From Candidatus Woesearchaeota archaeon (lineage in GTDB: Archaea > Nanobdellota > Nanobdellia > Pacearchaeales > GW2011-AR1), in contig CAZJEO010000001.1 of the NCBI GenBank assembly GCA_964545065.1, positions 53,338 through 117,337 on the forward strand: DNA of 64,000 bases. The letters are read 5' to 3'. The notes under the pieces were generated by a model. The model did no database searches. It had not been told where the DNA came from and saw only the letters and a list, made by a program, of their open reading frames with translations. Position numbers and translations under genes: made by a program. Shown one piece after another: positions 13,382 to 38,737 of this stretch. Position 1 is the first letter of the stretch; every line of letters starts with the position of its first letter.

Positions 13382-13525
13382 TCTCTTTTAGATGATATGG
13401 GAAGGGTGTTTAAAAGAATTTTGAATAGTAAAACTTTAAAACCCATTCCACTTTTAAAAAATAAGGTCCATCTTGTAATGGACCTTGAAAAGCTTTCATG
13501 GATAGGAAAGATAGTAACTGTCCAA

Positions 13526-13597
13526 GGTCCATTAGTCCAATGGCTAAGACGACTCGTTTACACCGAGTAGACTCAGGTTCGATTCCTGGATGGACCA
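13526..13597 (+). tRNA. tRNA-Val (UAC)
   Basis: Acceptor GGTCCAT/ATGGACC, anticodon arm ACTCG-TTTACAC-CGAGT, T arm TCAGG-TTCGATT-CCTGG. Confidence 0.88.
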
Positions 13598-13640
13598 TGA
13601 ATCCCTAAATCTTTTTAAATTAATTATATAAGAATTATAT

Positions 13641-14081
13641 ATGCAATATTTAGAAATGACATTAGAAGATAGTTTAGAAGGGATTTTTGATGTTGGAGAA
13701 GAATCATTTAATGAATTTTATCCTAGAGATAAATTTCTCAAAAGATTGCAAGATAGAAAATATTGGATTTATGTGGCAAAAGAAGAAGAGATAGTTGGCT
13801 TTAAAATATTCTATGAAGATGAAGATGGACAAATTTATAATTGGTTAGATGGTATTAAGCCTTCATATGGGAGGAGAGGTCTTGCTTCTGTTTTGATGAA
13901 TATGGAAATTGATTTTGGAAGACAAAATGGATATTCTAAAATAAAATTAAAAACTCATGAAGGACATCCTGAAATGATTGATTTATGTAAAAAATTTGGT
14001 TTTGTTGAAATAAGAAGAGAACCTCATCATTGGAAAGAGAGTATTGATAAAGAAGCTATATTTTTTGAGTTAACTTTATGA
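13641..14081 (+). CDS. GNAT-family N-acetyltransferase
   Basis: 146 aa. The RRGLASVLM acetyl-CoA motif A-like segment and overall size fit GNAT. Confidence 0.6.
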   Translation: MQYLEMTLEDSLEGIFDVGEESFNEFYPRDKFLKRLQDRKYWIYVAKEEEIVGFKIFYEDEDGQIYNWLDGIKPSYGRRGLASVLMNMEIDFGRQNGYSKIKLKTHEGHPEMIDLCKKFGFVEIRREPHHWKESIDKEAIFFELTL

Positions 14082-14100
14082 TCTAGTTTATGACGAAATC

Positions 14101-14109
14101 TTTATATAA
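14101..14109 (+). promoter_or_regulatory. TATA box of tRNA-Gly
   Basis: TTTATATAA lies 22 nt upstream of the tRNA 5' end. Confidence 0.45.
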
Positions 14110-14131
14110 TTTATTTATGAATCAGGTGTAA

Positions 14132-14277
14132 GCGCGGATAGTTTATTGGTAGAATATCTCGTTGCCAATGAGAACCACCAGCGGGTTCTTCACAATTCCT
14201 GCAACCCAGCAGGAAGCTGTAGAATGAATGGTGGAAGCAAAAACGAGGTGAGCCGAGTTCGATTCTCGGTCCGCGCA
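14132..14277 (+). tRNA. tRNA-Gly (GCC) with a 75-nt intron after position 37
   Basis: Acceptor GCGCGGA/TCCGCGC, D arm GTTT-ATTGGTA-GAAT, anticodon stem TCTCG/CGAGG, loop TTGCCA|intron|A, T arm CCGAG-TTCGATT-CTCGG. Spliced length is 71 nt. Confidence 0.85.
14168..14242 (+). other. tRNA-Gly intron (canonical 37/38 position, relaxed bulge-helix-bulge)
   Basis: TTGC (14162..14165) pairs with GCAA (14237..14240), followed by the 3-nt bulge AAA (14241..14243) next to CGAGG. The 5' side is irregular. Internal helices are CCACC/GGTGG, AGAACC/GGTTCT and TTCCTGC/GCAGGAA. Confidence 0.7.
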
Positions 14278-14385
14278 TAACTTTTCGAGAATCTTACCCA
14301 AGGAGGGCACAAGAACCTCTTCGAGGCACTCTCCGAGTTTCCCAAGGGATGATACTTCGTAGGCCTCGATTCTCGGTCCGCGCAT
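14278..14385 (+). other. GC-rich tRNA-Gly pseudo-3'-half with an insert in the T loop (unknown function)
   Basis: Perfect 20-nt repeat of the tRNA 3' end (14259..14278 = 14366..14385). It is preceded by CGAGG and CCGAG-TTT and by the 28-nt insert TTTCCCAAGGGATGATACTTCGTAGGCC, which is also found after tRNA-Trp. Confidence 0.6.
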
Positions 14386-14423
14386 TTAGGAACTTTTAAA
14401 TAGCCGTGATTTATTTTTTCACT

Positions 14424-15980
14424 ATGGAATCAGACAAATCTGAAGATAGAGACATACCTGAGATGAATCTTAATAAAAAGTATTCTAGCAAACTTCCTGA
14501 AATTCCCCAGACACCAGACAAAATTCAAAAGGAAATGGAGAAAGTTAAGAAAGATCTTGAGAAATTGAAGAATTTTATTGTTAAGAAATATTCTTTTACT
14601 CAGGCGATTGGAATCTTGCCGCCAATGTCAATTAAGTTGTTTGTCGAGGAGGAAGAAGTTCCCAAGGAAACAGAAAAGTATGTTCATTTGTATATGATTG
14701 TTCCTGAAGAAAAATTTAAAGAAATACCAAAAATAAAGAAAGAGATTGTGGCTCATATTGAATCAATGAATGAGAAAATTTGGCTTCATATTAAAACTCC
14801 AGTTGATCTTTGGGAAGTTTGTCTTGATAGTAAATTTGATTTGGCCAGCGCAATTGGGATGTCTTTACCTCTTTATGATAAAGGAATTTTGGGAGCATTG
14901 AGGGTAGCAGAAATTCACAAATCATTGGTTTTACAAAAGTTTGAAAAATATGTTGTTAGCTATGTTATTGGGGGAAGTTTAGTTAGGGGAGAAGCTGTAA
15001 AGACTTCTGATGTTGATGTTTTTATAATTATTAATGATACTGATGTGAAGAGAATGCCGAGGTTGGAGTTGAAGGAAAGGTTAAGGGGAATTATTTACCA
15101 GTATGTTGCTGAAGCTTCTGCGCTTGCTGGTGTTAAGAATAAACTTGAACCGCAAATTTATCTTTTGACTGATTTTTGGGAAAGTGTAAAGGATGCGCAT
15201 CCTGTTATTTTTACTTTTATTAGAGATGGAATTCCTCTTTATGATAGGGGAACATTCATGCCATGGAAAGCTTTGTTGAAAATGGGTAAGTTAAAACCGT
15301 CGCCAGAGGCGATTGAGATGTTTATGTCAATGGGGGATAAGACTGTTACTCGAGCAAAAGCAGGTTTATTAGATATTGTGATTCATGATCTTTATTGGGG
15401 GGTTTTAACTCCAAGCCAGGCAGTTTTAATGCTTTATGGTTTGCCCCCACCAACACATAAGACTGCTGCCAATGAAATGAAAAAGATTTTTGTTGATAAA
15501 GAAAAAATGTTAGAATTAAAGTATGTTAAAATTCTTGAAAAAATTGTTGGAATTTACAAGGATTATGAGCATGAGAAAATAAAGGACATTAAAGGTGCTG
15601 AAGTTGATAAGCTGATTAAAGATACAGAAGATTATTTGAAGAGGTTGAAAGAATTGAGAGAGCAAATTGAGAAGCGAACTTCTGAGAAAACAATTGAACA
15701 AATTTATGCGGACACTTTTAGTGTTTTGAAAGGAATGCTTGGAAATAAAACGCAAAAAGCAATGGTTGAAAGTTTTGAGAAAGATTTGGTTAAGAAGGGC
15801 AAGATGCCACCGCACAATTTGAGGATTTTGAAGAATATTATTTCTGCACGAGTAGATTTTAAAAAAGGAAAGTTGAACGTCCATAAAGTTGATGATGCTC
15901 GAAAACAAGCTTCGATTTTGATGAATGATTTGATTGAATATAATCAGAGATGTGATTTGGCTAATGGGAAGAAAAAATAA
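14424..15980 (+). CDS. nucleotidyltransferase-domain protein (pol-beta superfamily) with a long helical C-terminal region
   Basis: ORF 14406..15980. NTase motif GGSLVRGEAVKTSDVDVFIIIND. ATG 14424 sits 22 nt after AACTTTTAAATA (14391..14402). Paralogous to 17469..18329. Confidence 0.7.
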   Translation: MESDKSEDRDIPEMNLNKKYSSKLPEIPQTPDKIQKEMEKVKKDLEKLKNFIVKKYSFTQAIGILPPMSIKLFVEEEEVPKETEKYVHLYMIVPEEKFKEIPKIKKEIVAHIESMNEKIWLHIKTPVDLWEVCLDSKFDLASAIGMSLPLYDKGILGALRVAEIHKSLVLQKFEKYVVSYVIGGSLVRGEAVKTSDVDVFIIINDTDVKRMPRLELKERLRGIIYQYVAEASALAGVKNKLEPQIYLLTDFWESVKDAHPVIFTFIRDGIPLYDRGTFMPWKALLKMGKLKPSPEAIEMFMSMGDKTVTRAKAGLLDIVIHDLYWGVLTPSQAVLMLYGLPPPTHKTAANEMKKIFVDKEKMLELKYVKILEKIVGIYKDYEHEKIKDIKGAEVDKLIKDTEDYLKRLKELREQIEKRTSEKTIEQIYADTFSVLKGMLGNKTQKAMVESFEKDLVKKGKMPPHNLRILKNIISARVDFKKGKLNVHKVDDARKQASILMNDLIEYNQRCDLANGKKK

Positions 15981-16024
15981 TTATTAGCAACTTTTAAAAA
16001 CTAAATTTCTTGATAATAATTATA

Positions 16025-16279
16025 ATGAAAGGAAAAGTTATTCAATTTAGGCGTGGAAGACATGTGATTCATGAACGGCACTTTTTGATAGAAGTTGGTA
16101 CGAAAAATAGGGAAGAAGCTGAGAAGTTTGTGGGAAAAGAAGTTGAATGGAAGTCGCCTGCTGGAAAAGTGATTAAGGGAAAAATTGCAGCGCCTCATGG
16201 AAACAATGGATTGGTTCGAGCTATTTTTGAAAAAGGTTTGCCTGGGCAAGCTGTTACAACAGAGGTTGAAATAAAATAA
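16025..16279 (+). CDS. rpl35ae: 50S ribosomal protein L35Ae
   Basis: GKVIQFRRG...WKSPAGKVIKGKIAAPHGNNGLVRAIFEKGLPGQA matches archaeal L35Ae. ATG 16025 follows AACTTTTAAAAA (15989..16000). Confidence 0.92.
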   Translation: MKGKVIQFRRGRHVIHERHFLIEVGTKNREEAEKFVGKEVEWKSPAGKVIKGKIAAPHGNNGLVRAIFEKGLPGQAVTTEVEIK

Positions 16280-16280
16280 A

Positions 16281-16826
16281 ATGCCACCATTAAGAAAAGC
16301 TACAGCGTATTCAAAGAAGAAAGTTACCCCATATACTAGGGTTAGCAAGAAAAAGGGAAAGTCTTACATTAAAACTGTTCCGCAGCAGAAAATTGTTAAG
16401 TTTGCAATGGGGAAACATAAATCTTTTGCTAATGGGAGATTGCTTCATACTTTGACAATGATTTCTACAGAAAATGTTCAAGTTCGGCATAATGCTCTTG
16501 AGGCTTGTAGGCAGTTTGTTAATAAGAAACTTGAGACAGAACTTAAGGGGCAATATTATTTTAGAATAATTCCTTATTCACATCATGTTCAAAGAGAGAA
16601 TAGAATGCTTACTGGTGCAGGAGCAGATAGAATGCAGACAGGAATGCAATTATCTTTTGGGAAGGCTATGGGAAAATCAGCTATTGTAAAGAAAAATACT
16701 CCTCTGTTTTTCGTCGCTGTTCAGAATCCAAAGGCAGCTGCTTTTGCTAGGAAATTGTATAAGCAGATTAAGTCTAAGCTTCCTGGAAAAACTAGAGTTC
16801 TTTACGAGATTAAGAAGAAAGCATAA
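16281..16826 (+). CDS. rpl10e: 50S ribosomal protein L10e (uL16)
   Basis: 181 aa. ENVQVRHNALEACRQ... and GAGADRMQTGMQLSFGKAMG are typical of L10e. Confidence 0.92.
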   Translation: MPPLRKATAYSKKKVTPYTRVSKKKGKSYIKTVPQQKIVKFAMGKHKSFANGRLLHTLTMISTENVQVRHNALEACRQFVNKKLETELKGQYYFRIIPYSHHVQRENRMLTGAGADRMQTGMQLSFGKAMGKSAIVKKNTPLFFVAVQNPKAAAFARKLYKQIKSKLPGKTRVLYEIKKKA

Positions 16827-16888
16827 TGTTTAATTCTTTAGTGGTAACATTTAGAAAAGTTTATAAAGTAGAAATGTGAGAGAATAAT

Positions 16889-17452
16889 ATGACAAATGAA
16901 GAAGAAAAACCAGATATGAAGAGATATGATTATCTTGGATTAGTTGCACAATTAAACGAAGCAGATCAAATTTATACTTTGGCAGCTATGGATAATTATG
17001 TAGATGGTTTGCAAGAAAAAGATTTAAGAGAAAATAGTAAAGCTCAATTGAGGTCATCAAAACAAGGATCTGGATTAGAACATGCCATTGAAGCATCTTC
17101 TGAAAAATATGTAACTAATCGTAATAAAACTACTTTAAAAGATTTTTGTGATATTTATTCTGTAGATGAGTTTACAAGAAAATCACTTGAGAGTTATTCT
17201 AAAAGAACAATTGGAGATATAGAGAAAGAATATAGTTCTTTAACAGAAATAGTTAAAAGTAAGACAGGTAATTTTACTAAAGAACAAAAAGAAGATGCTA
17301 AAAAGAAACTTGAAGAGTATAATCCAGTTATGGCTAAGATAAAATTTGTTGAAGATGAAAGATTTACAAATTTGAAAATTGACGCCATTAAAAGAACAAA
17401 GCAAAATATGGAAGAGGAAGAAAAAGAGAAACAATTGGCAAACGCTGCTTAA
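16889..17452 (+). CDS. hypothetical coiled-coil protein
   Basis: 187-aa charged, helical ORF with no recognised motif. Confidence 0.5.
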   Translation: MTNEEEKPDMKRYDYLGLVAQLNEADQIYTLAAMDNYVDGLQEKDLRENSKAQLRSSKQGSGLEHAIEASSEKYVTNRNKTTLKDFCDIYSVDEFTRKSLESYSKRTIGDIEKEYSSLTEIVKSKTGNFTKEQKEDAKKKLEEYNPVMAKIKFVEDERFTNLKIDAIKRTKQNMEEEEKEKQLANAA

Positions 17453-17468
17453 TTATTTTATAGAAAAA

Positions 17469-18329
17469 TTACTTGACATATTCATTTACTAACTTAGCCA
17501 TTGTTTTCATGAAGTCTTCTGTTCTGTCTTGCCACATATCTATTTCAACACCTTTTAAATCATTGATGTCGCCGTGGGAAATCTTTTTGTGGAGCATGAG
17601 TAAATCGCGGTACCATAAAGTATATTTCATTTTTAGTTTTCCTGCGTTGACAAAAGTTTCTTTTAGGTCAATTGAGATATGTTCTGGAGAAGCGGGCGGG
17701 ACATTTGCAGCAATGAGAGCTGCGTGAGCAGAATCAACCATTGCCCAATACAAGCCTTCGATTGAATTTAGTTCAGCTGCTTTGCTTCTTAGAATGTGTT
17801 GAGGGGCTCTTTGCAAACAATTGTAAATTGCTTCTGGTGTTGATTTTATTTTTCCTTTTACTAATAAGTATTTTAGAGGTTCGAAAAATCCTGCGAGGTC
17901 AATCATTGCTTCACCGTGGCGGATGACATTTATTACAACAGGGTCTCCGCGCATTAAATCTTCCCACCATGTACTTAATTTTATCGTATTAATGTGTAAA
18001 TGTTTTTGGTAAGGATTTGCTCGAAGTAGTTTGTCAAGTTCTTCCCGGTACCATGCGATTAATTCCTGGTCCCATTTTATTGAAACATCGTCAAGAATTA
18101 TAATTATATCAATGTCAGAGCCGGCTGTTGAGGTTTGCTTGACTGAAGATCCGAAAAGAACAACAGATTTAATCATCTTGTTGTATTTTTTATAGAGCTT
18201 TGTGGCAAAATCCATCGCTATCTCTGATTCATTTTTTAACTGTAGGCTTGGGACACTTTTTCCCTCTGGAATTCTCTTTTGAGATTTCTTCTTTGGCTTG
18301 CTTGGAGATTTAGATTTTTTCTTCACCAT
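17469..18329 (-). CDS. nucleotidyltransferase-domain protein with a helical (HEPN-like?) C-terminal domain
   Basis: 286 aa. NTase motif FGSSVKQTSTAGSDIDIIIILDD. The C-terminal LYWAMVDSAHAALIAANVPP parallels LYWGVLTPSQAVLMLYGLPP of 14424..15980. Confidence 0.7.
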   Translation of the reverse strand: MVKKKSKSPSKPKKKSQKRIPEGKSVPSLQLKNESEIAMDFATKLYKKYNKMIKSVVLFGSSVKQTSTAGSDIDIIIILDDVSIKWDQELIAWYREELDKLLRANPYQKHLHINTIKLSTWWEDLMRGDPVVINVIRHGEAMIDLAGFFEPLKYLLVKGKIKSTPEAIYNCLQRAPQHILRSKAAELNSIEGLYWAMVDSAHAALIAANVPPASPEHISIDLKETFVNAGKLKMKYTLWYRDLLMLHKKISHGDINDLKGVEIDMWQDRTEDFMKTMAKLVNEYVK

Positions 18330-18387
18330 CTTTTATGTTTGTAGTAAGTTTGAAGAGTTTTTAAAAGTTTTGAAGAAAAGGATAACT

Positions 18388-18435
18388 CCTCGCTTCGCTC
18401 GGAAATCTATTATGTTAATATCTAGATTCGCGAGG
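18388..18435. repeat. bipartite GC-rich intergenic motif, copy 1 (CTCGCTTCGCTCG-N22-AGATTCGCG)
   Basis: CCTCGCTTCGCTCGG at 18388..18402 and TAGATTCGCGAGG at 18423..18435. Lies in a divergent intergenic region, with the same orientation and spacing as the copies at 31041.. and 36880... Confidence 0.6.
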
Positions 18436-18562
18436 ATGAACAGATATTGTAAACAAGATTATATCCCAGCATGAATTCTTGGAATAAGGTATTTTAATCT
18501 TAGGGGCGGAAAATTTTGTTTTAAGTTAAATATTTAAAACTAGTTCTGTTTAAAAAATTGAG

Positions 18563-19093
18563 ATGGTGAAAAAAACAGTTTGTATTATTACTGGACCTTG
18601 TGGTGTCGGAAAATCTACAATATCTAAGTTATTGGCGAAACATATCAAAAAAAGTGCCTATATAGGTGTAGATATTTTACGGGAGGAGATGATTAAAAAC
18701 GGAAAAGTTAGTCCATTTTCTTACAAAGGGGAATCAAAAAGACAAGTAGATCTTGGGACAAAAAATTCTTCTGATTTAGCGAACAATTTTCTTAGAGCAG
18801 GATTTAATGTTTTTATTGATGATGTTCTTGAAAGGAAACAACAAGTAAAAGATTATATTAAGTATCTTAGTTCTTCCAAAATCCATATATTTCTTCTGTT
18901 ACCAAATAAAACGATTATTAAAAAAAGAGATTCTCAAAGGAAGAAGAAGGATAGGATGGGTAAAAGAGCATTAGAACTTCACGATATATTTACAAAAAGA
19001 ATTCCTGAAGAAAATTGGCATGTTCTAGACACAAGTAATCAGACAATAAAAGAAACTGAAAAAGAAATCTTAAATATTTTAGAGATAAAATGA
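18563..19093 (+). CDS. P-loop kinase-like protein (AAA_33-like)
   Basis: Walker A GPCGVGKST at the N-terminus; 176 aa. Confidence 0.6.
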   Translation: MVKKTVCIITGPCGVGKSTISKLLAKHIKKSAYIGVDILREEMIKNGKVSPFSYKGESKRQVDLGTKNSSDLANNFLRAGFNVFIDDVLERKQQVKDYIKYLSSSKIHIFLLLPNKTIIKKRDSQRKKKDRMGKRALELHDIFTKRIPEENWHVLDTSNQTIKETEKEILNILEIK

Positions 19094-19854
19094 AAAAAGT
19101 AAATTATCACATTCATACCACCGGCTCTGATGGAAAATTAAGACCTGAAGATTGGATAAAACTTGCAATAAAAAAGAAATTTGATATTTTAGGAATTACA
19201 GACCATTATACTATCCCAAAAGGTTTTAGAAAACCAAATAATGAAATGTACTCTTATTATTCTGAAAAACATTACAAAAAATTAATTGAATTAAGAAATA
19301 AATATAAGGATAAAATTAAAATTTTTGTTAATGTTGAATTTGATTGGTTTGAGGAGTATAAAGATTGGTTAAAGAAAGAAGCAACAAGAAGAAGATATGA
19401 TTTAAGATATATTTCAGTCCATTATATAAAAACAAAGAAAGAATATATACCATTAGATTGGACAGAAGAAGGTTTTCAAGACATGATCAAAAGTTTTGGA
19501 ACAGTAAAAAAACTTGTTAAGTGGTATTATTCATCATTAAGAAAAGCCATTAATCTCGGATGTTTTGATGTTGTGGCTCATTTAGATATAGTCAAAATTT
19601 GGAATAAAAATAAAAAGTATTTCTCTGGAAAGGAAAATTGGTATAAATTGGAAATCCAAAAAACATTAAAATTAATTAAAAAGAAAAATATGAAGCTTGA
19701 TTTAAATATATCAGGTTTTAGAAAACCTTGTGCTGAACAATATCCTAGCAAGGATATTTTAGAAGAAGCTAAAAAAATGAAAATTCCTCTTTTGGTTGGA
19801 ACCGATGCTCACAAAGCAGAGGAATTAGAAGCAGGACTAAATCTAATTAAATGA
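19090..19854 (+). CDS. PHP-family phosphoesterase (histidinol-phosphatase-like)
   Basis: YHIHTTGSDG, GITDHYT, VAHLD and GTDAH metal-ligand motifs. The start overlaps the upstream stop (ATGA). Confidence 0.75.
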   Translation: MKKVNYHIHTTGSDGKLRPEDWIKLAIKKKFDILGITDHYTIPKGFRKPNNEMYSYYSEKHYKKLIELRNKYKDKIKIFVNVEFDWFEEYKDWLKKEATRRRYDLRYISVHYIKTKKEYIPLDWTEEGFQDMIKSFGTVKKLVKWYYSSLRKAINLGCFDVVAHLDIVKIWNKNKKYFSGKENWYKLEIQKTLKLIKKKNMKLDLNISGFRKPCAEQYPSKDILEEAKKMKIPLLVGTDAHKAEELEAGLNLIK

Positions 19855-19952
19855 AAAATTTGGGTGAAACCAAGTAACATATAATTATTATGAATAAACC
19901 TAATTGAAATTTTAAGACACTTAGAGATGGTGAAGTTATAATCATTTAACAT

Positions 19953-21770
19953 TCATTCCATCGGCTTACCGCTCATTCTAGAACCTTGTGCTCCTGGCAT
20001 TTGTCCTCCGAGTTCTACTGGTAATTGCATGAAGCCTGCTCCAAATGTTTCATAATTCATTTGAGGAAGCCATTGTCCTGATAAACCTCCCATATATCCT
20101 TGTTGTAATCCTTGTGCCTGATTCCAGTAAGGTGCCATGTCCATTGAATAAATAGGAGAACCAAATGCTTCCAGAGTTTCTTTGAATGGTGGTGTTTTGA
20201 AATGCTGCCACCAGTTTCCGGCTTCGATAATTTTCTTTGCATCAAATCCTTCTTTTCCTATTTTTTCGAGAATTTCTTTTATTGGAACATTTCCCATACC
20301 CATTGGAAGTTCTGTGTGCTCGAATCCGAAGTTGTCTGATAGGTGGATGTGTTTTACAAGAGGAGCAACTGCTTCTGTTTCTTTTACAATGTCTTTATCT
20401 TCATAGCCGTATTTTCTGAGCATGTTAATATGCCCAACATCCCAGGTTACTCCAAGAATCTTATCTGCTGCTTGCTGCGCTTGCTTTTTTGACATTCCTA
20501 AACCTCTTTGGTCTTTAGGTAGATTATAACTATCGGGTTTTGTTGCTCTTGTAACAAATTCTTCTCTTGCTTTCTCAACAATTTCCTTGAGTTCTTCTCC
20601 TGTGCTGAATCCTCCACCTGCAGGAGGATTTTCAATACTGATTATTGGTGAATTGTTCCCGAATTTTTTATAAGAATCAAATGCAATATTTGCGAATGTT
20701 TGAATGGTTTTTCCTTTGGCAAATGAGTCAATTTCTGTGAACATTTCTGGGAGGGTAATATCCTTCAAAGTTCCAATTCCTTCATCAATAACTTCTCTTT
20801 TTAGTATTGCTTTATCATGCGTGCTTTTTGACTTATTTATTTCTTCTACTTTTTGTGCTATTCGTTCTCCTAGTTCTTTTATTGTTTCTTTATCCTGATC
20901 TGTTGCTGCGTATTCATATGCTGATTCATAAACTCCCTTAAATTCTCTGTATGCATTATTGAGGAATGTGTCTGCCATGGTGAATGCGTGCTTCGCTCTT
21001 TTTTCTTTTTCATTGATTTCTCTTCCTTGTGCTTCTTCTAATTCAGCTATGACTGCTGTTTTTTCATATGTATCGATTAATTCACCTGCTCGTTCATTTT
21101 CATATGAGAGGTGACTAAGATTTTGAAGCCAAGAATCTTCATTTACTTTGTTAAGTTCTTTTTGAATTATATCCTGCTCTGTTTCAGTTTTTTTTCTCTC
21201 TTCTCCGGGGAAATGTTTTTCTTCTTTTATTGGGATTCTGTTAATCCCGCCTGTTTCCTTATTGATGATGAGCATTTCCTCTGCTTTTTTTCCTTTTTCT
21301 CCTATTTTTCCAGGAAGCATTACAGAAGAATGGAAAGTTACTGGGATGTTTCCGTCGGGATTTATTTCATGGCTTTTTTCAACTGCTGAGAACATCTGAC
21401 GCTCTGCTGCTTTTCTGTTTGTTTCTGTGAATCCTTCTTTCTGAGTGAGTCCTGATGCTTCTACAATTGGACCGTGAACAGAGATATCGACTCCTGTTAA
21501 TTTAGAAAGTCTATTGAGTTCCTTTAAGTGTTGTTTTGGAATTGATTCAAATACTTCTGGAGTTACTGCAGATATTTCCATGTGCTTAACTCCTGATGCA
21601 AGTTTTGCAGATGTATCCTGTAAGACATTTGCTGTTCGCGGGTCTGTTGTTAAACCAAAGCCGCCCGCATTTACCTTGTAGCCTGTGAAAACATCACCAT
21701 AAGTAGGTTTTAGAGAAGAGTATCCTCCCTGATAAATGCTACTTAAAGTATAACCACCTATTTTTGCCAT
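19953..21770 (-). CDS. xylose-isomerase-like/EndoIV-like TIM-barrel protein split by a ~250-aa charged insertion, with a G/Q/M-rich tail
   Basis: 605 aa. The N-terminal part has ISVHGP and VTFHSS; the C-terminal part has WDVGHINM and HIHLSDNFG (sugar phosphate isomerase/AP endonuclease 2 type ligands). The middle is Glu/Lys-rich and helical. The tail is MGGLSGQWLPQMNYETFGAGFMQLPVELGGQMPGAQGSRM. Confidence 0.5.
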   Translation of the reverse strand: MAKIGGYTLSSIYQGGYSSLKPTYGDVFTGYKVNAGGFGLTTDPRTANVLQDTSAKLASGVKHMEISAVTPEVFESIPKQHLKELNRLSKLTGVDISVHGPIVEASGLTQKEGFTETNRKAAERQMFSAVEKSHEINPDGNIPVTFHSSVMLPGKIGEKGKKAEEMLIINKETGGINRIPIKEEKHFPGEERKKTETEQDIIQKELNKVNEDSWLQNLSHLSYENERAGELIDTYEKTAVIAELEEAQGREINEKEKRAKHAFTMADTFLNNAYREFKGVYESAYEYAATDQDKETIKELGERIAQKVEEINKSKSTHDKAILKREVIDEGIGTLKDITLPEMFTEIDSFAKGKTIQTFANIAFDSYKKFGNNSPIISIENPPAGGGFSTGEELKEIVEKAREEFVTRATKPDSYNLPKDQRGLGMSKKQAQQAADKILGVTWDVGHINMLRKYGYEDKDIVKETEAVAPLVKHIHLSDNFGFEHTELPMGMGNVPIKEILEKIGKEGFDAKKIIEAGNWWQHFKTPPFKETLEAFGSPIYSMDMAPYWNQAQGLQQGYMGGLSGQWLPQMNYETFGAGFMQLPVELGGQMPGAQGSRMSGKPME

Positions 21771-21808
21771 CTTTGATTAAATAAAGTTTCCTTTATTTAT
21801 TAATTTAT

Positions 21809-22408
21809 CTACAAGTTAACTTTCCTGTATTTTTTCTGCTCTGGTTCAAAAGGCATCCGTCTTTCTTGTTCAAGAGTTTCTGTTGTGAATCTTGGTTCAT
21901 TGTTCTCTTGAATTTCAATCCGAGGCTCTGTTCCGCGCATTAAAACTTCCTGATTTCTTCCAGTTAATCTTGTTGATTCTAATACAGGAGCACCAATACT
22001 TTCATATTTTTTTTCAGATGTTTTTGTCCTTCTGAAATCATTGTATCGTGGTTCATTCTCTGAAATTGGTGAAGTAGTGTAATCAATTCTTGTTTGGTCC
22101 TCTTTATTTTCTTGTTGGGAATTAGGGAGGTTTAATTCTAATGCTTTTTGTGTTTGGACTCTTTCAAGAACTGGTGCACGAGAATTTGTTTCAATTTGAG
22201 TAAAGGATTGTTCAAATCCAGATTCTTCAATTTTATCTGCTTCTTTAATATTTTTTTCTAAAGGAGAACCACCAGCGGGTTCTTCCCAGTTCCTGCGACC
22301 TAACAGGAAGTTGATTTCAGATTTTTTTTCGACTATCTTTTTCTTTTTTTTAATCTCTTTGATTTTCTTTTGTTTTGTTTTAGAAATCCCTTTCTTTTTC
22401 TTTGGCAT
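21809..22408 (-). CDS. Lys-rich low-complexity protein, hypothetical
   Basis: 199 aa. N-terminus MPKKKKGISKTKQKKIKEIKKKKK, repeated APVLE motif. Sits between two co-directional genes with gaps of 2 nt (upstream) and 38 nt (downstream). Confidence 0.5.
   Translation of the reverse strand: MPKKKKGISKTKQKKIKEIKKKKKIVEKKSEINFLLGRRNWEEPAGGSPLEKNIKEADKIEESGFEQSFTQIETNSRAPVLERVQTQKALELNLPNSQQENKEDQTRIDYTTSPISENEPRYNDFRRTKTSEKKYESIGAPVLESTRLTGRNQEVLMRGTEPRIEIQENNEPRFTTETLEQERRMPFEPEQKKYRKVNL
22264..22313. repeat. copy of the tRNA-Gly-intron two-hairpin module inside a CDS
   Basis: 44/50 nt identical to 14170..14219. The first 22 nt (GAGAACCACCAGCGGGTTCTTC) are identical. Same + orientation, so antisense to the host mRNA. 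Confidence 0.85.
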
Positions 22409-22410
22409 TA

Positions 22411-23841
22411 TTAAGTGAAACTTTCCATTCCATGAGCATCCTTGTAAATATCAAATAAATTAAAAGCAGTATCTTTTGATTTGCTTGCTGCAAAAGGTCT
22501 GATGTTTTCTTTTTCAATAAAATTATCTACTTTGATGATAGAATCTTTTTTATCTTTTCCTTTTTTTGTTTCTTTTTTATCATATTTTCCAATTAATGCA
22601 AAAAATGGGTTTGATTCATCTTGGGATTTCTCTTTCTTTTTTTTGGCCTCGGGTTTTTCTTCCTCTTCTAAAAAGAAATCAATTTCGTCTTGCAATTGCT
22701 TTAAACTTTCATCAGTTGCTCCTTCAATCAAAGTTAAGACATCGCCAACATCTGAATTTGCTAATTCTTTTTCTAATTTTTCTAACTCTTCTTCGTTTAA
22801 TGCATATCCTCTAAAGGTTATGTTGGCTTTTCCTCCAAAAGCATAATGCGCTTGCTGACCTGCCTTCTGAGGTATTCCTCTGAATGTGAAATCAATTAAA
22901 ACACAGCTGTAGTATTTTCTTTTTAATGATTTTTGAATTCCTGCTTCTGAAAATTCTTTTGGCAAATTTCCTGCTATTGCTTCATCCTTAACGTCTATTT
23001 CATGTTTGCCCAACAAAGTTAATTCAAGAAGAATTGTATTGAATACTTTTACTAATGCTGGTTCTCTTGCATTTTCTTTTGATTCGAGTTGCTGTGCTGC
23101 TTTTAGATATGGCTTTGCCCATCGTGAATAAAGTTTCAAGCTATTGACCTGACTTCTTAGATAATTTCTTTCAATTTCATATCTTTTTCTTAGTTCTTTT
23201 TCAGATTGGTCTAGCCATGCATTGAATTCCATTACTCTTGGTTTTAGGATTCTTCTCACTCTGTCGTTTAAGTCTAATTTGTCAACATCTTTTGCCTCTT
23301 TTGCTACGAGAAATGCATCAATGAGGGTTTGGAAACCTGCTTGGCCAAGTGCCATTGCTTTAATACTTGAGTTTTGTTTGGCTATATCTACTTTGTCCAT
23401 CCAGAGTTGTTTTAATGCGAGTGTTGCAGCATCTTTTTTACTTTCATCTTTTGATTTTAATCCCTCGTAATGATCTAATCTTATTCTGAATTCCTTTAAA
23501 TCATAGATAATATTTAGGACGCTTCTTAAAACAGTGTTGACATCTCCGAGTATTTTTGTTGCTTGTTGCTGCATTATTGTTGCTCTCTGTCCAAGTTCTG
23601 CAAAGTGTCCTGAACCAGGAGTAGATGAAAAGTTGTCTATGATCTTTTCTGGGCTTAACCCGTAGTCTGTCATTAAATCAACAATGAAAAAGTAAACTGG
23701 CTCAAGCGTTTCTGTTGAGGAATCATATTCAAGAACATGTTCTGTTTCTGGTTCTCCTTTTTTCTTATAGTATGGTGAAACATCTTGGATTATTTCAAAT
23801 ACTGATTTTATTTTTGTTTCTTCCTCTTCTGTTTTTGCCAT
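22411..23841 (-). CDS. hypothetical protein (476 aa, helical core, acidic/Lys-rich C-terminal region)
   Basis: Long ORF and first gene of the 23841..19953 string. I recognise no motif. Confidence 0.6.
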   Translation of the reverse strand: MAKTEEEETKIKSVFEIIQDVSPYYKKKGEPETEHVLEYDSSTETLEPVYFFIVDLMTDYGLSPEKIIDNFSSTPGSGHFAELGQRATIMQQQATKILGDVNTVLRSVLNIIYDLKEFRIRLDHYEGLKSKDESKKDAATLALKQLWMDKVDIAKQNSSIKAMALGQAGFQTLIDAFLVAKEAKDVDKLDLNDRVRRILKPRVMEFNAWLDQSEKELRKRYEIERNYLRSQVNSLKLYSRWAKPYLKAAQQLESKENAREPALVKVFNTILLELTLLGKHEIDVKDEAIAGNLPKEFSEAGIQKSLKRKYYSCVLIDFTFRGIPQKAGQQAHYAFGGKANITFRGYALNEEELEKLEKELANSDVGDVLTLIEGATDESLKQLQDEIDFFLEEEEKPEAKKKKEKSQDESNPFFALIGKYDKKETKKGKDKKDSIIKVDNFIEKENIRPFAASKSKDTAFNLFDIYKDAHGMESFT

Positions 23842-31007: not shown

Positions 31008-31114
31008 GGTTTTTGGATATTGATATTAGTATATAAATTGCTCGCTTCGCTCGATTGATAGAATAGATAATTTAGATTCGCAGGGTTTTCAGTTATCAGT
31101 TACGTTGATTTGCG
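31008..31114. repeat. repeated promoter cassette, copy 2 (TATA + CTCGCTTCGCTCG-N20-AGATTCGC)
   Basis: 25 nt at 31030..31054 are identical to 36869..36893. The flanks are also similar. The minus-strand TTTATATA lies 22 nt upstream of ATG 31007. Confidence 0.7.
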
Positions 31115-36847: not shown

Positions 36848-36931
36848 GATTTTTGGTATTGAAATTGATATATAAATTGCTCGCTTCGCTCGAGATATAA
36901 GAATTGATAATCTAAATTCGCGTTGATTTCG
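36848..36931. repeat. repeated promoter cassette, copy 3 (TATA + CTCGCTTCGCTCG-N21-AAATTCGCG)
   Basis: Near-identical to 31008..31114. The minus-strand TTTATATA (36869..36876) lies 21 nt upstream of ATG 36847. Confidence 0.7.
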
Positions 36932-37765: not shown

Positions 37766-38737
37766 TTAAATCCCCCCAATCGGATCACTAAATTCTTCAT
37801 CAACTTTTTTAACTCTTTCTTGATCTAGCTCTTTAAGTTCTTCTTCAAGTTCTGCTTTTAGTTCTGCAAAAGGATCTTCATTGTGTTTAAGGAAAACATC
37901 TTTGAGCCAGATGTAAATTTCGTCAAAATGATTTTCTTGATGGAGCCAAATCTTTTTCTGATTTTCTAAATGCAAAAGAGGCAAGAGCGAGATTATTTTT
38001 TCTTCTCTATCTTCCCCAATCAATTCATTAATTGAGATTTTTTTCTTTATTTCTTCGTCTTGTAAATGCTTGAAGAGTTTATTATAAAGTTCTTTCATTT
38101 TGTCCTTGGTACTGAATTTCTTTTTTGGAAGTGAGAAAGAACTTTTTCTTACAGCGTTATTGTTGATTGTTATTTTTTGGATTCTTCTATTTTCTGTTGT
38201 AATTGCCTTGTTTAATGATTCAATTAATTCTTGTAATGTTACTTTTTTGAATCTTGGAATCGGACTTCTTAGAACGAGCTCTGGAATTTCTTCATCAAGT
38301 TCTATTCTTTCTAAAGCGTATTTTTTCTCTTCTTTTTTTCCAAATAGAATTTCATCTATGCTTTTTATGTAGGTATTTAGAAGAATTTCTGATTTAATCT
38401 TCAAAAATAATGATGCTGCGAGCAAAACTTTACTTGAAATAAAAAAATCTGCTTCTTCCATTTTTCTTACTTTTTCGAGATATTTCTCTGACAAGATTAT
38501 AATATCAATATCCCATGCGTCCAATTGTTCTGTATTAATCAAATCATAGATGATTTCTTGCCATCCTAGCTCTCTACTAAAGAGTAAATCGTGGATTTGG
38601 TCTTGTTTTACTGAATGAAGAACCTCCTGCGGGTTCTTTCCAGCTTCTTGCTTCCGACCTTGCTCGTATTGATTGCTATGTGCTCTTGCAAAATCGCTCG
38701 GCATCCCAGTAGAAGTTGATGAATCACCTTCTTTCAT
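37766..38737 (-). CDS. scpA: segregation and condensation protein A (kleisin)
   Basis: The core LLFSRELGWQEIIYDLINTEQLDAWDIDIIILSEKYLEKV...LLAASLFLKIKSEILL is typical of ScpA. There is an unusual ~45-aa N-terminal extension. Confidence 0.75.
   Translation of the reverse strand: MKEGDSSTSTGMPSDFARAHSNQYEQGRKQEAGKNPQEVLHSVKQDQIHDLLFSRELGWQEIIYDLINTEQLDAWDIDIIILSEKYLEKVRKMEEADFFISSKVLLAASLFLKIKSEILLNTYIKSIDEILFGKKEEKKYALERIELDEEIPELVLRSPIPRFKKVTLQELIESLNKAITTENRRIQKITINNNAVRKSSFSLPKKKFSTKDKMKELYNKLFKHLQDEEIKKKISINELIGEDREEKIISLLPLLHLENQKKIWLHQENHFDEIYIWLKDVFLKHNEDPFAELKAELEEELKELDQERVKKVDEEFSDPIGGI
38618..38660. repeat. diverged copy of the intron hairpin module inside the scpA 5' region
   Basis: AAGAACCTCCTGCGGGTTCTTTCC compared with the intron AGAACCACCAGCGGGTTCTTCAC: same stem AGAACC/GGTTCT, 18/20 over the hairpin. 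+ orientation, so antisense to the scpA mRNA. Confidence 0.55.

Follow-up and report, generated by a model that had tools for sequence, protein, structure and literature searches.

A 22-base match between a gene for a Lys-rich protein and the intron of a tRNA-Gly gene exists because the gene and the intron each hold a copy of one repeat, which is very likely mobile. The window, that is, the whole stretch of 64,000 nucleotides that was analysed, belongs to the 782-kb genome (27 contigs, 32% GC, assembly 85% complete) of a Woesearchaeota/Pacearchaeota-type DPANN archaeon, here called the source genome (G000). The repeat is a small (54-75 nt), GC-rich, two-hairpin cassette that is dispersed in archaea of this type and probably behaves there as mobile DNA. 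No earlier account of an element like this one from DPANN archaea came up in full-text literature searches, and this family of mobile hairpin cassettes, which resembles Rickettsia palindromic elements (RPE) and miniature inverted-repeat elements (MITEs), is apparently undescribed. We propose that it would be a non-autonomous cassette, defined by its structure and sieved by selection to harmless or useful sites.

The block in the Lys-rich ORF

The following features were assigned to the Lys-rich ORF.

21809..22408, - strand: host gene, encoding a Lys/Glu-rich protein of 199 aa, no Pfam family
22262..22315, - strand: element copy in the host ORF, 54 nt or 18 codons, in frame, reading INFLLGRRNWEEPAGGSP
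22264..22284, + strand: hairpin 1 of the block, GAGAACC / loop ACCAGCG / GGTTCTT
22290..22309, + strand: hairpin 2 of the block, TTCCTG / loop CGACCTAA / CAGGAA

The sequence GAGAACCACCAGCGGGTTCTTC matched the window at exactly two places, 14170-14191 and 22264-22285, both on the + strand and with 22 of 22 bases identical; the identity of the two sites had been reported in a preliminary description of this DNA. No further match was found in the window with up to three mismatches allowed, and none of 100 dinucleotide-preserving shuffles contained a match of this type. The description had also traced the similarity through the second hairpin; between 14153-14219 and 22247-22313 it amounted to 81% over 67 nt, TTCCTGC/CAGGAA included. 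The block starts 94 nt past the first base of the start codon, and the translation of the host ORF across the repeat is ..SEINFLLGRRNWEEPAGGSPLE... On the mRNA strand, the loop and 3' arm of hairpin 1 read GCTGGTGGTTC, which is Shine-Dalgarno-like. Hairpin 2 is confined to the subfamily of the source genus and a few other genera.

Whether orthologues contain the block had been left to an alignment in the preliminary description. The Lys-rich gene is conserved in the congeners, downstream of a 476-aa gene, and by way of this conserved upstream gene the orthologues of all four congeners (G001-G004) were obtained among 24 relatives that were fetched. None of the four carried the block.

G000, occupied site: ..KKKKKIVEKKSE[INFLLGRRNWEEPAGGSP]LEKNIKEADKIEESGF..
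G001, empty site: ..KKKIIKKEST-LEKEIEETEE..
G002, empty site: ..KKEIEEIS-LEKKVEEEKE..
G003, empty site: ..KKEIEKSE-LEKNIEKIGK..
G004, empty site: ..KKKKKIIEEESE-LEKNIENTEE..

The 54-nt block forms a clean insertion between the conserved flanks SE|LEKNI with the frame kept, and no target duplication was found around it. By this sequence comparison, the copy is shown to be a lineage-specific, exactly in-frame insertion in a low-complexity N-terminal region, and it is most likely a neutral, tolerated passenger.

The 50-nt core of the block matched a copy on contig C5 of the source genome and a copy in G001 at 47 of 50 positions each, and the intron copy at 44 of 50. The perfect 22-mer is the family consensus, common to four source-genome copies and one congener copy. 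The 22-nt identity is therefore shared descent of two family-consensus copies and not a dedicated pairing site.

Copies in the source genome

At least eight copies of the two-hairpin element were detected in the source genome by BLAST and regular-expression searches. Besides the block described above, these included the following.

~14167-14230 including its extension, + strand: copy in the tRNA-Gly intron (BLAST/regex)
38617..38724, + strand: diverged copy in scpA with a nested ~60-nt insert, 28.2 bits with the covariance model
2 nt upstream of the ATG of the ribosomal protein S10 gene: leader copy
1 nt upstream of the ATG of the RNase HII gene: leader copy
membrane-type ORF of 381 aa on contig C5, 2 nt before its ATG: C5 copy
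contig C17, 4405-4510: copy downstream of a RelE-like ORF (a name taken from reading the C-terminal sequence alone), carrying a 53-nt nested insert
5' end of the tRNA-Lys(CTT) intron: diverged copy (AAAACCACCTGCGGGTTTTT...)

The scpA gene lies on the - strand with its ATG at 38737, and the element copy is inside its 5' end. The scpA orthologues of G001-G004 lack about 36 extra N-terminal residues. The cassette was absent from the S10 upstream region in G001, G002, and G004, and from the RNase HII upstream region in G001-G004. At these empty sites a TATA-like box lies ~22 nt away from the ATG, which indicates that both genes are leaderless there, and in the source genome a cassette of ~66 nt sits exactly between the TATA position and the ATG of both genes. 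On these comparisons, all testable source-genome copies are lineage-specific insertions.

The nested inserts of the C17 and scpA copies (~53-60 nt, between the hairpins; window 38640-38700 in scpA) share the motifs CCTYGCTCG / CTTGCTC, and window 31011-31054 and 36850-36893 contain related GCTCGCTTCGCTCGA repeats. This pattern is suggestive of another family of small modules, which inserts into copies of the first cassette. Separately, the 22.6-kb contig C10 has 43.5% GC, compared with 31-35% elsewhere, and among its genes is a second tRNA-Val(TAC). The contig is possibly foreign or a contaminant from binning.

Distribution and structure of the family

A covariance model (R1) was built from an alignment of eight copies (A2). 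It matched 53 of 201 genomes of the same taxonomic family, representing 51 of 191 genera, and single genomes contained as many as 13 copies. A pattern search found the element in four relatives. The preliminary description had taken absence of the block from all relatives, their tRNA-Gly introns included, as a pointer to a strain-specific accident. The four congeneric orthologues do lack the block, and the tRNA-Gly genes of 11 relatives have no intron; the block is nevertheless no strain-specific accident but a single insertion from a mobile repeat family that is widespread.

The conserved core consists of hairpin 1 (RARAACC, loop WCCWGCG, GGTTYTY) followed by ACAAYTCCWGCAWCC; in many genera this core is joined by another hairpin, whose stem is variable and whose loop, TTGCCTCCGA, is conserved. 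At pair 6-22 of hairpin 1, the 33 aligned members showed A-U in 15, G-C in 15, and no pairing in two. The covariation score of hairpin 1 exceeded those of all 500 shuffles and all slid controls, and both stem variants were found within single genomes. The stem covariation and the coexistence of both variants are better explained by the folding of a strand than by a shifting palindrome to which a protein binds. Which strand folds was also sought from G-U pairs, and this was uninformative, pair 4-24 favoring the + strand and pair 5-23 the other. In a search of window 13400-23000 against Rfam, the only matches at E<=1 were two tRNAs and none was to the element.

Element copies at non-orthologous loci of two congeners were up to 98% identical (49/50). 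In comparison, the third positions of identical four- and six-fold codons of S10 and RNase HII were 54-69% identical between G000 and G001. Because the identity of the element is far above this synonymous-type identity, the family is young or active, or was homogenised recently, in each lineage. Tandem arrays of the element occur, and several copies in other genomes lie at contig ends. A contig pattern search with AACCNCCNGCGGGTTNT was abandoned as too unspecific, its matches being mostly chance bacterial ones; the archaeal matches included Pacearchaeota and Nanoarchaeota.

Copies at start codons

In 15 of 59 non-redundant copies (25%), an ATG that opens an ORF of at least 100 aa was found 0-3 nt past the foot of hairpin 1, compared with 0.94% at random positions of the same DNA. 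These start-adjacent copies were always oriented with the reverse complement of GAGAACC... in the mRNA, so that the loop and 3' arm read GCWGGWGGTT (GGAGGT/GGTGGT) 5-8 nt before the ATG. The 3' end of the 16S rRNA is GGATCACCTCCT. Among the long ORFs of the source genome, 8% are preceded by an SD-like motif and 46% by a TATA-like box at -35..-15. Upstream of a leaderless ATG, the hairpin-1 loop of the cassette would thus supply a Shine-Dalgarno sequence 5-8 nt before the start, and we infer that a leaderless gene would in this way acquire a structured, SD-bearing leader.

The S10 start of G003 (L030) carries a different subfamily member of ~100 nt at exactly the same site as in G000. This independent hit points to the start site as a preferred, not only a tolerated, target. 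The L030 cassette begins with ATGCC, a near-duplicate of the ATGTC start of S10.

In front of RNase HII and the C5 gene, an upstream ATG opens a short ORF through the cassette, with ATGTT and ATGAA, respectively, repeated on both sides. A reading of the cassette as an upstream ORF or start duplication fits these two genes, but not the S10 and Lys-rich ORF copies, and the pattern is not general for the source-genome subfamily. At the empty RNase HII site of G001 (L039), ATGcaATGTTAAT contains an extra ATG 5 nt before the start and no cassette; this could be the footprint of a lost cassette or chance.

In four genera the cassette is located just past the stop codon of the 476-aa gene, and the last ~18 nt of that gene (ATGCCGAGTTATACATAG, encoding MPSYT*) recur as a direct repeat that flanks it. 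No such copy was found at this position in the source genome. The copies are:

G004: L003/L068
G029: L001/L065
G124: L100
G131: L094

It was considered whether the family is primarily a cis-regulatory RNA of the host, a structured 5' leader for SD presentation or ribosome standby, of which the ORF and intron copies would be misplaced by-products. Such a leader would account for the quarter of the copies that stand 0-3 nt before an ATG in mRNA sense with GGAGG/GGTGG 5-8 nt upstream, for a loop conserved over 51 genera on covarying stems, and for a placement before tRNA-His that recurs in two genera. Indeed, the conservation of the loop together with the recurrent placement before tRNA-His and after the 476-aa gene could reflect a host function instead of mobility. 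It leaves unexplained, however, the presence or absence of copies at orthologues within a genus, the near-identity of non-orthologous copies, the tandem arrays, and the copies in tRNA introns and coding sequence; in addition, a tRNA gene needs no SD. Exaptation after insertion would also be compatible with a mobile cassette. As the primary explanation, a host leader RNA is therefore considered unlikely.

Copies in tRNA introns

The interrupted tRNA gene of the window comprises the following features.

14132..14277, + strand: tRNA-Gly(GCC) gene, interrupted at 37/38 (Rfam tRNA 46.4 bits; ARAGORN with introns allowed)
14168..14242, + strand: 75-nt intron of this gene (ARAGORN i(37,75))

The intron consists of an element copy plus ~12 nt that provide GCAA, paired to UUGC of the anticodon loop. 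This is the only Gly-GCC gene in the 85%-complete source assembly. No intron was present in the tRNA-Gly(GCC) genes of 11 relatives, three congeners included, which read ..TTGCCAA|CGAGG... Since the congeners have an uninterrupted gene, the intron is demonstrably a recent insertion.

The predicted exon-intron motif has a 4-bp helix (UUGC/GCAA) and a 3-nt 3' bulge, AAA, at the 3' splice site. At the predicted 5' splice site, a 9-nt loop takes the place of the 3-nt bulge; the motif is thus bulge-helix-loop-like, a relaxed form and not a strict bulge-helix-bulge. With the anticodon stem enforced, this structure reached -31.0 kcal/mol, compared with a constrained minimum free energy of -32.9 kcal/mol. 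The intron body is predicted to form a rod, CCACCA...UGGUGG, that is tipped by hairpin 2 (z = -3.5). The source genome contains one EndA ORF, of 180 aa. On this folding model, a cassette in an anticodon loop would be removable as a 37/38 intron through the relaxed bulge-helix-loop motif.

A tRNA gene was located within 110 nt of 14 of 32 element loci. In other genera, element copies form or fill the 37/38 introns of tRNA-Arg(TCG), tRNA-Leu(TAA), and tRNA-Ile(TAT). The tRNA-Lys(CTT) introns of G000 and G003 are built from different cassette subfamilies, and this intron is absent from G001 and about 12 other genomes. The 37/38 introns of tRNA-Lys(CTT) in further genomes are unrelated in sequence between genera (L262-L291). 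This patchy presence and the unrelated sequences indicate that tRNA-Lys(CTT) introns were repeatedly gained and lost. In two genera, a copy was also found 2 nt ahead of the tRNA-His 5' end (L052 in G137 and L090 in G081). The tRNA-His site of G081 holds a tandem pair of cassettes, and an IS200-type tnpA lies ~250 nt away.

A second copy of the 3' half of tRNA-Gly was seen ~100 nt past the gene, at window 14278-14384. It reads CGAGG...CCGAG TT[26-nt insert with CCCAAGGGATGA]TCGATTCTCGGTCCGCGCA, and its last 17 nt equal 14261-14277. In G020 and G009 the 3' end of tRNA-Gly is likewise duplicated, 70-100 nt downstream.

The host ORF is on the - strand and the intron on the + strand, so that the tRNA-Gly intron RNA has its complement in the Lys-rich mRNA, a point already made in the preliminary description. 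It had further proposed that this mRNA could fold into the same hairpins or pair with the intron RNA. Both are energetically possible: the mRNA segment of the block was predicted to fold into two hairpins at -19.4 kcal/mol, with a z of just -1.6 compared with shuffles, and the duplex with the intron RNA at -80.7 kcal/mol. A specific relation between the intron and the ORF was not borne out, the 22-mer being the family consensus.

Extended to the other copies, this proposal becomes a trans-antisense system in which the excised, possibly circularised, tRNA-Gly intron pairs with the Lys-rich mRNA and with the S10, RNase HII, C5, and scpA copies, coupling their translation or stability to the processing of pre-tRNA-Gly. 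Predicted intron-mRNA duplexes of -81 to -96 kcal/mol, the strongest with the S10 leader, compare with about -47 kcal/mol for the separate folds and -24 kcal/mol for shuffled targets. The region paired to the intron covers the SD-like motif in the leaders and abuts the ATG, and four of five intron copies in the family are oriented antisense to the gene-associated copies. Pairing between the intron and mRNA is thus physically possible as modelled. It is, however, not conserved, the intron being absent from 11 of 11 relatives and the ORF block from four of four congeners, and the copy in the Lys-rich ORF is not specially matched to the intron copy. Because neither partner is present at the orthologous sites of the relatives, any such interaction would be a species-specific by-product, and we regard a regulatory system of this kind as very unlikely.

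Copies within coding sequence

Intragenic copies that are read through are a minority; few of the 59 copies span real ORFs. Two of the at least eight source-genome copies are intragenic, and they are read in different frames. As had been noted in the preliminary description, the scpA copy is read in a frame other than that of the Lys-rich ORF (..GKNPQEVL..). Copies would persist where they do no harm, and in coding sequence a copy would survive only where the reading frame is kept and the surrounding segment is tolerant and disordered, as in the Lys-rich ORF.

A selected peptide module, in which the 18 residues INFLLGRRNWEEPAGGSP give the Lys-rich protein a function, would agree with the exactly in-frame insertion. 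By hand count over the eight copies of A2, nine of 15 variable columns also fall on third positions of the EEPAGGS frame, with p ~0.03 before correction for three phases and with the same phase being third on both strands. This bias could hint at a past coding constraint or at loop geometry; as a sign of coding constraint, it was set aside as suggestive only. The orthologues, however, do not have the block, and the frame of the element relative to a downstream ATG varies with spacings of 0-3 nt. Since the two coding copies differ in frame and the majority of copies do not lie in coding sequence, the peptide is not the conserved thing, in line with the earlier argument that it was not the target of selection, and a functional peptide module is highly improbable. 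An assembly or binning artefact caused by the repeat in a metagenome-assembled genome is scarcely credible: family copies at contig ends elsewhere indicate that the repeat does break assemblies, but the block lies inside a 208-kb contig, in exact frame and with both flanks orthologous to four congeners.

Features related to mobility

The cassette is multicopy and shows presence or absence at orthologous sites, as classical MITEs do. No terminal inverted repeats were found: one end (..AWT GAGAACC..) does not recur in inverted form at the other (..CAGGAAGTTGA), and the element consists of two or three internal hairpins. There was no target-site duplication of fixed length either. Flank matches of 5 nt were observed at RNase HII (ATGTT), the C5 gene (ATGAA), and scpA (ATTCA), and duplications were inconsistent across loci, with none at the Lys-rich ORF or S10. 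Other genomes showed direct repeats of 15-30 nt at some loci, derived from gene ends, for example, the ~18-nt repeat from the 476-aa gene and a flanking repeat of 17 nt at L062. At L077 the flanks seem to share a repeat of 25 nt, but this locus is part of a tandem array of the unit.

As to a parent autonomous insertion sequence, no pair of hairpin 1 and hairpin 2 split by a gene was found in G000. The transposase screen covered the Y1 (IS200/IS605) family with the PF01797 profile and yielded no mobilising enzyme: Y1 transposases were absent from G000 and G004. PF01797 was present in 62 of 201 genomes of the family and co-occurred with the element in 21, compared with 16 expected, which is a weak association. 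A Y1 transposase was therefore rejected as the mobiliser, being absent from the source genome and showing no convincing association across the 201 genomes. The IS200-type copy beside the element in G081 was likewise rejected as a relative, its end hairpins being unrelated. A search of IMG/VR with a tighter pattern revealed no viral carrier; the one match was a chance one in GC-rich DNA, with neither hairpin nor tRNA.

A bolder form of the mobile-cassette explanation, speculative and rather improbable in our estimate, would have the cassette home to the first transcribed bases (leaderless start codons and the 5' end of tRNA-His) and to anticodon loops through neither a classical transposase nor an integrase. 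It would thereby create canonical tRNA introns de novo and turn leaderless genes into SD-led ones, and excised introns with anti-SD-like CCWCC loops could titrate the leaders.

Discussion

Among the known systems closest to the cassette are the RPE (Ogata et al. 2000, as summarised in PMC10969869). RPE are short palindromic or hairpin repeats, dispersed in a reduced genome, that interrupt unrelated protein genes without loss of frame and are translated as extra residues, and that also occur in non-coding and RNA-gene contexts. The cassette shares with them the in-frame palindromic repeat that does not disrupt the ORF (Lys-rich ORF and scpA). Unlike RPE, which measure ~100-150 nt, the archaeal cassette measures ~54-75 nt, is intragenic in a minority of cases, stands mostly at start codons or in or beside tRNA genes, and forms tRNA introns. 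The large intragenic share with one conserved peptide frame that would mark an RPE-like repeat was not found, and there is no sequence relationship between the two.

In Thermoproteales, transposed tRNA introns (Fujishima et al. 2010, as summarised in PMC4090602) resemble the cassette in that near-identical intervening sequences occupy non-homologous tRNA genes, which for both implies gain at the DNA level after speciation. The cassette differs from them in its occurrence also in leaders and coding sequence, in empty congener sites that document the gain directly, and in lineage, being found in DPANN and not in Crenarchaeota.

Correia elements (CREE) and promoter-proximal bacterial MITEs (PMC10969869) are, like the cassette, small and non-autonomous and lie preferentially just upstream of genes, where they alter expression signals. 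Correia elements are bounded by terminal inverted repeats, duplicate a TA target, and contain promoters and an IHF site; in contrast, the cassette lacks both terminal inverted repeats and a TATA box and contributes an SD-like motif. The REP/BIME elements with RAYT and the palindrome-associated elements derived from IS200/IS605 (PMC3733652) are similarly hairpin-defined and orientation-specific and lack a classical target-site duplication. The cassette differs from them in having no GTAG/CGTC tag and in not being restricted to extragenic DNA, and no cognate Y1 transposase was found in G000 or G004.

The mechanism by which introns were "transposed" in Thermoproteales is unknown (PMC4090602), and a preprint on Asgard tRNA introns (2026) treats the route of intron arrival as still open. 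For the gain of tRNA introns, the dispersed repeat family described here offers a concrete and testable source. The cassette also suggests a route by which leaderless genes gain SD-bearing leaders, and its in-frame copies would make it an archaeal counterpart of 'selfish DNA in protein-coding genes'.
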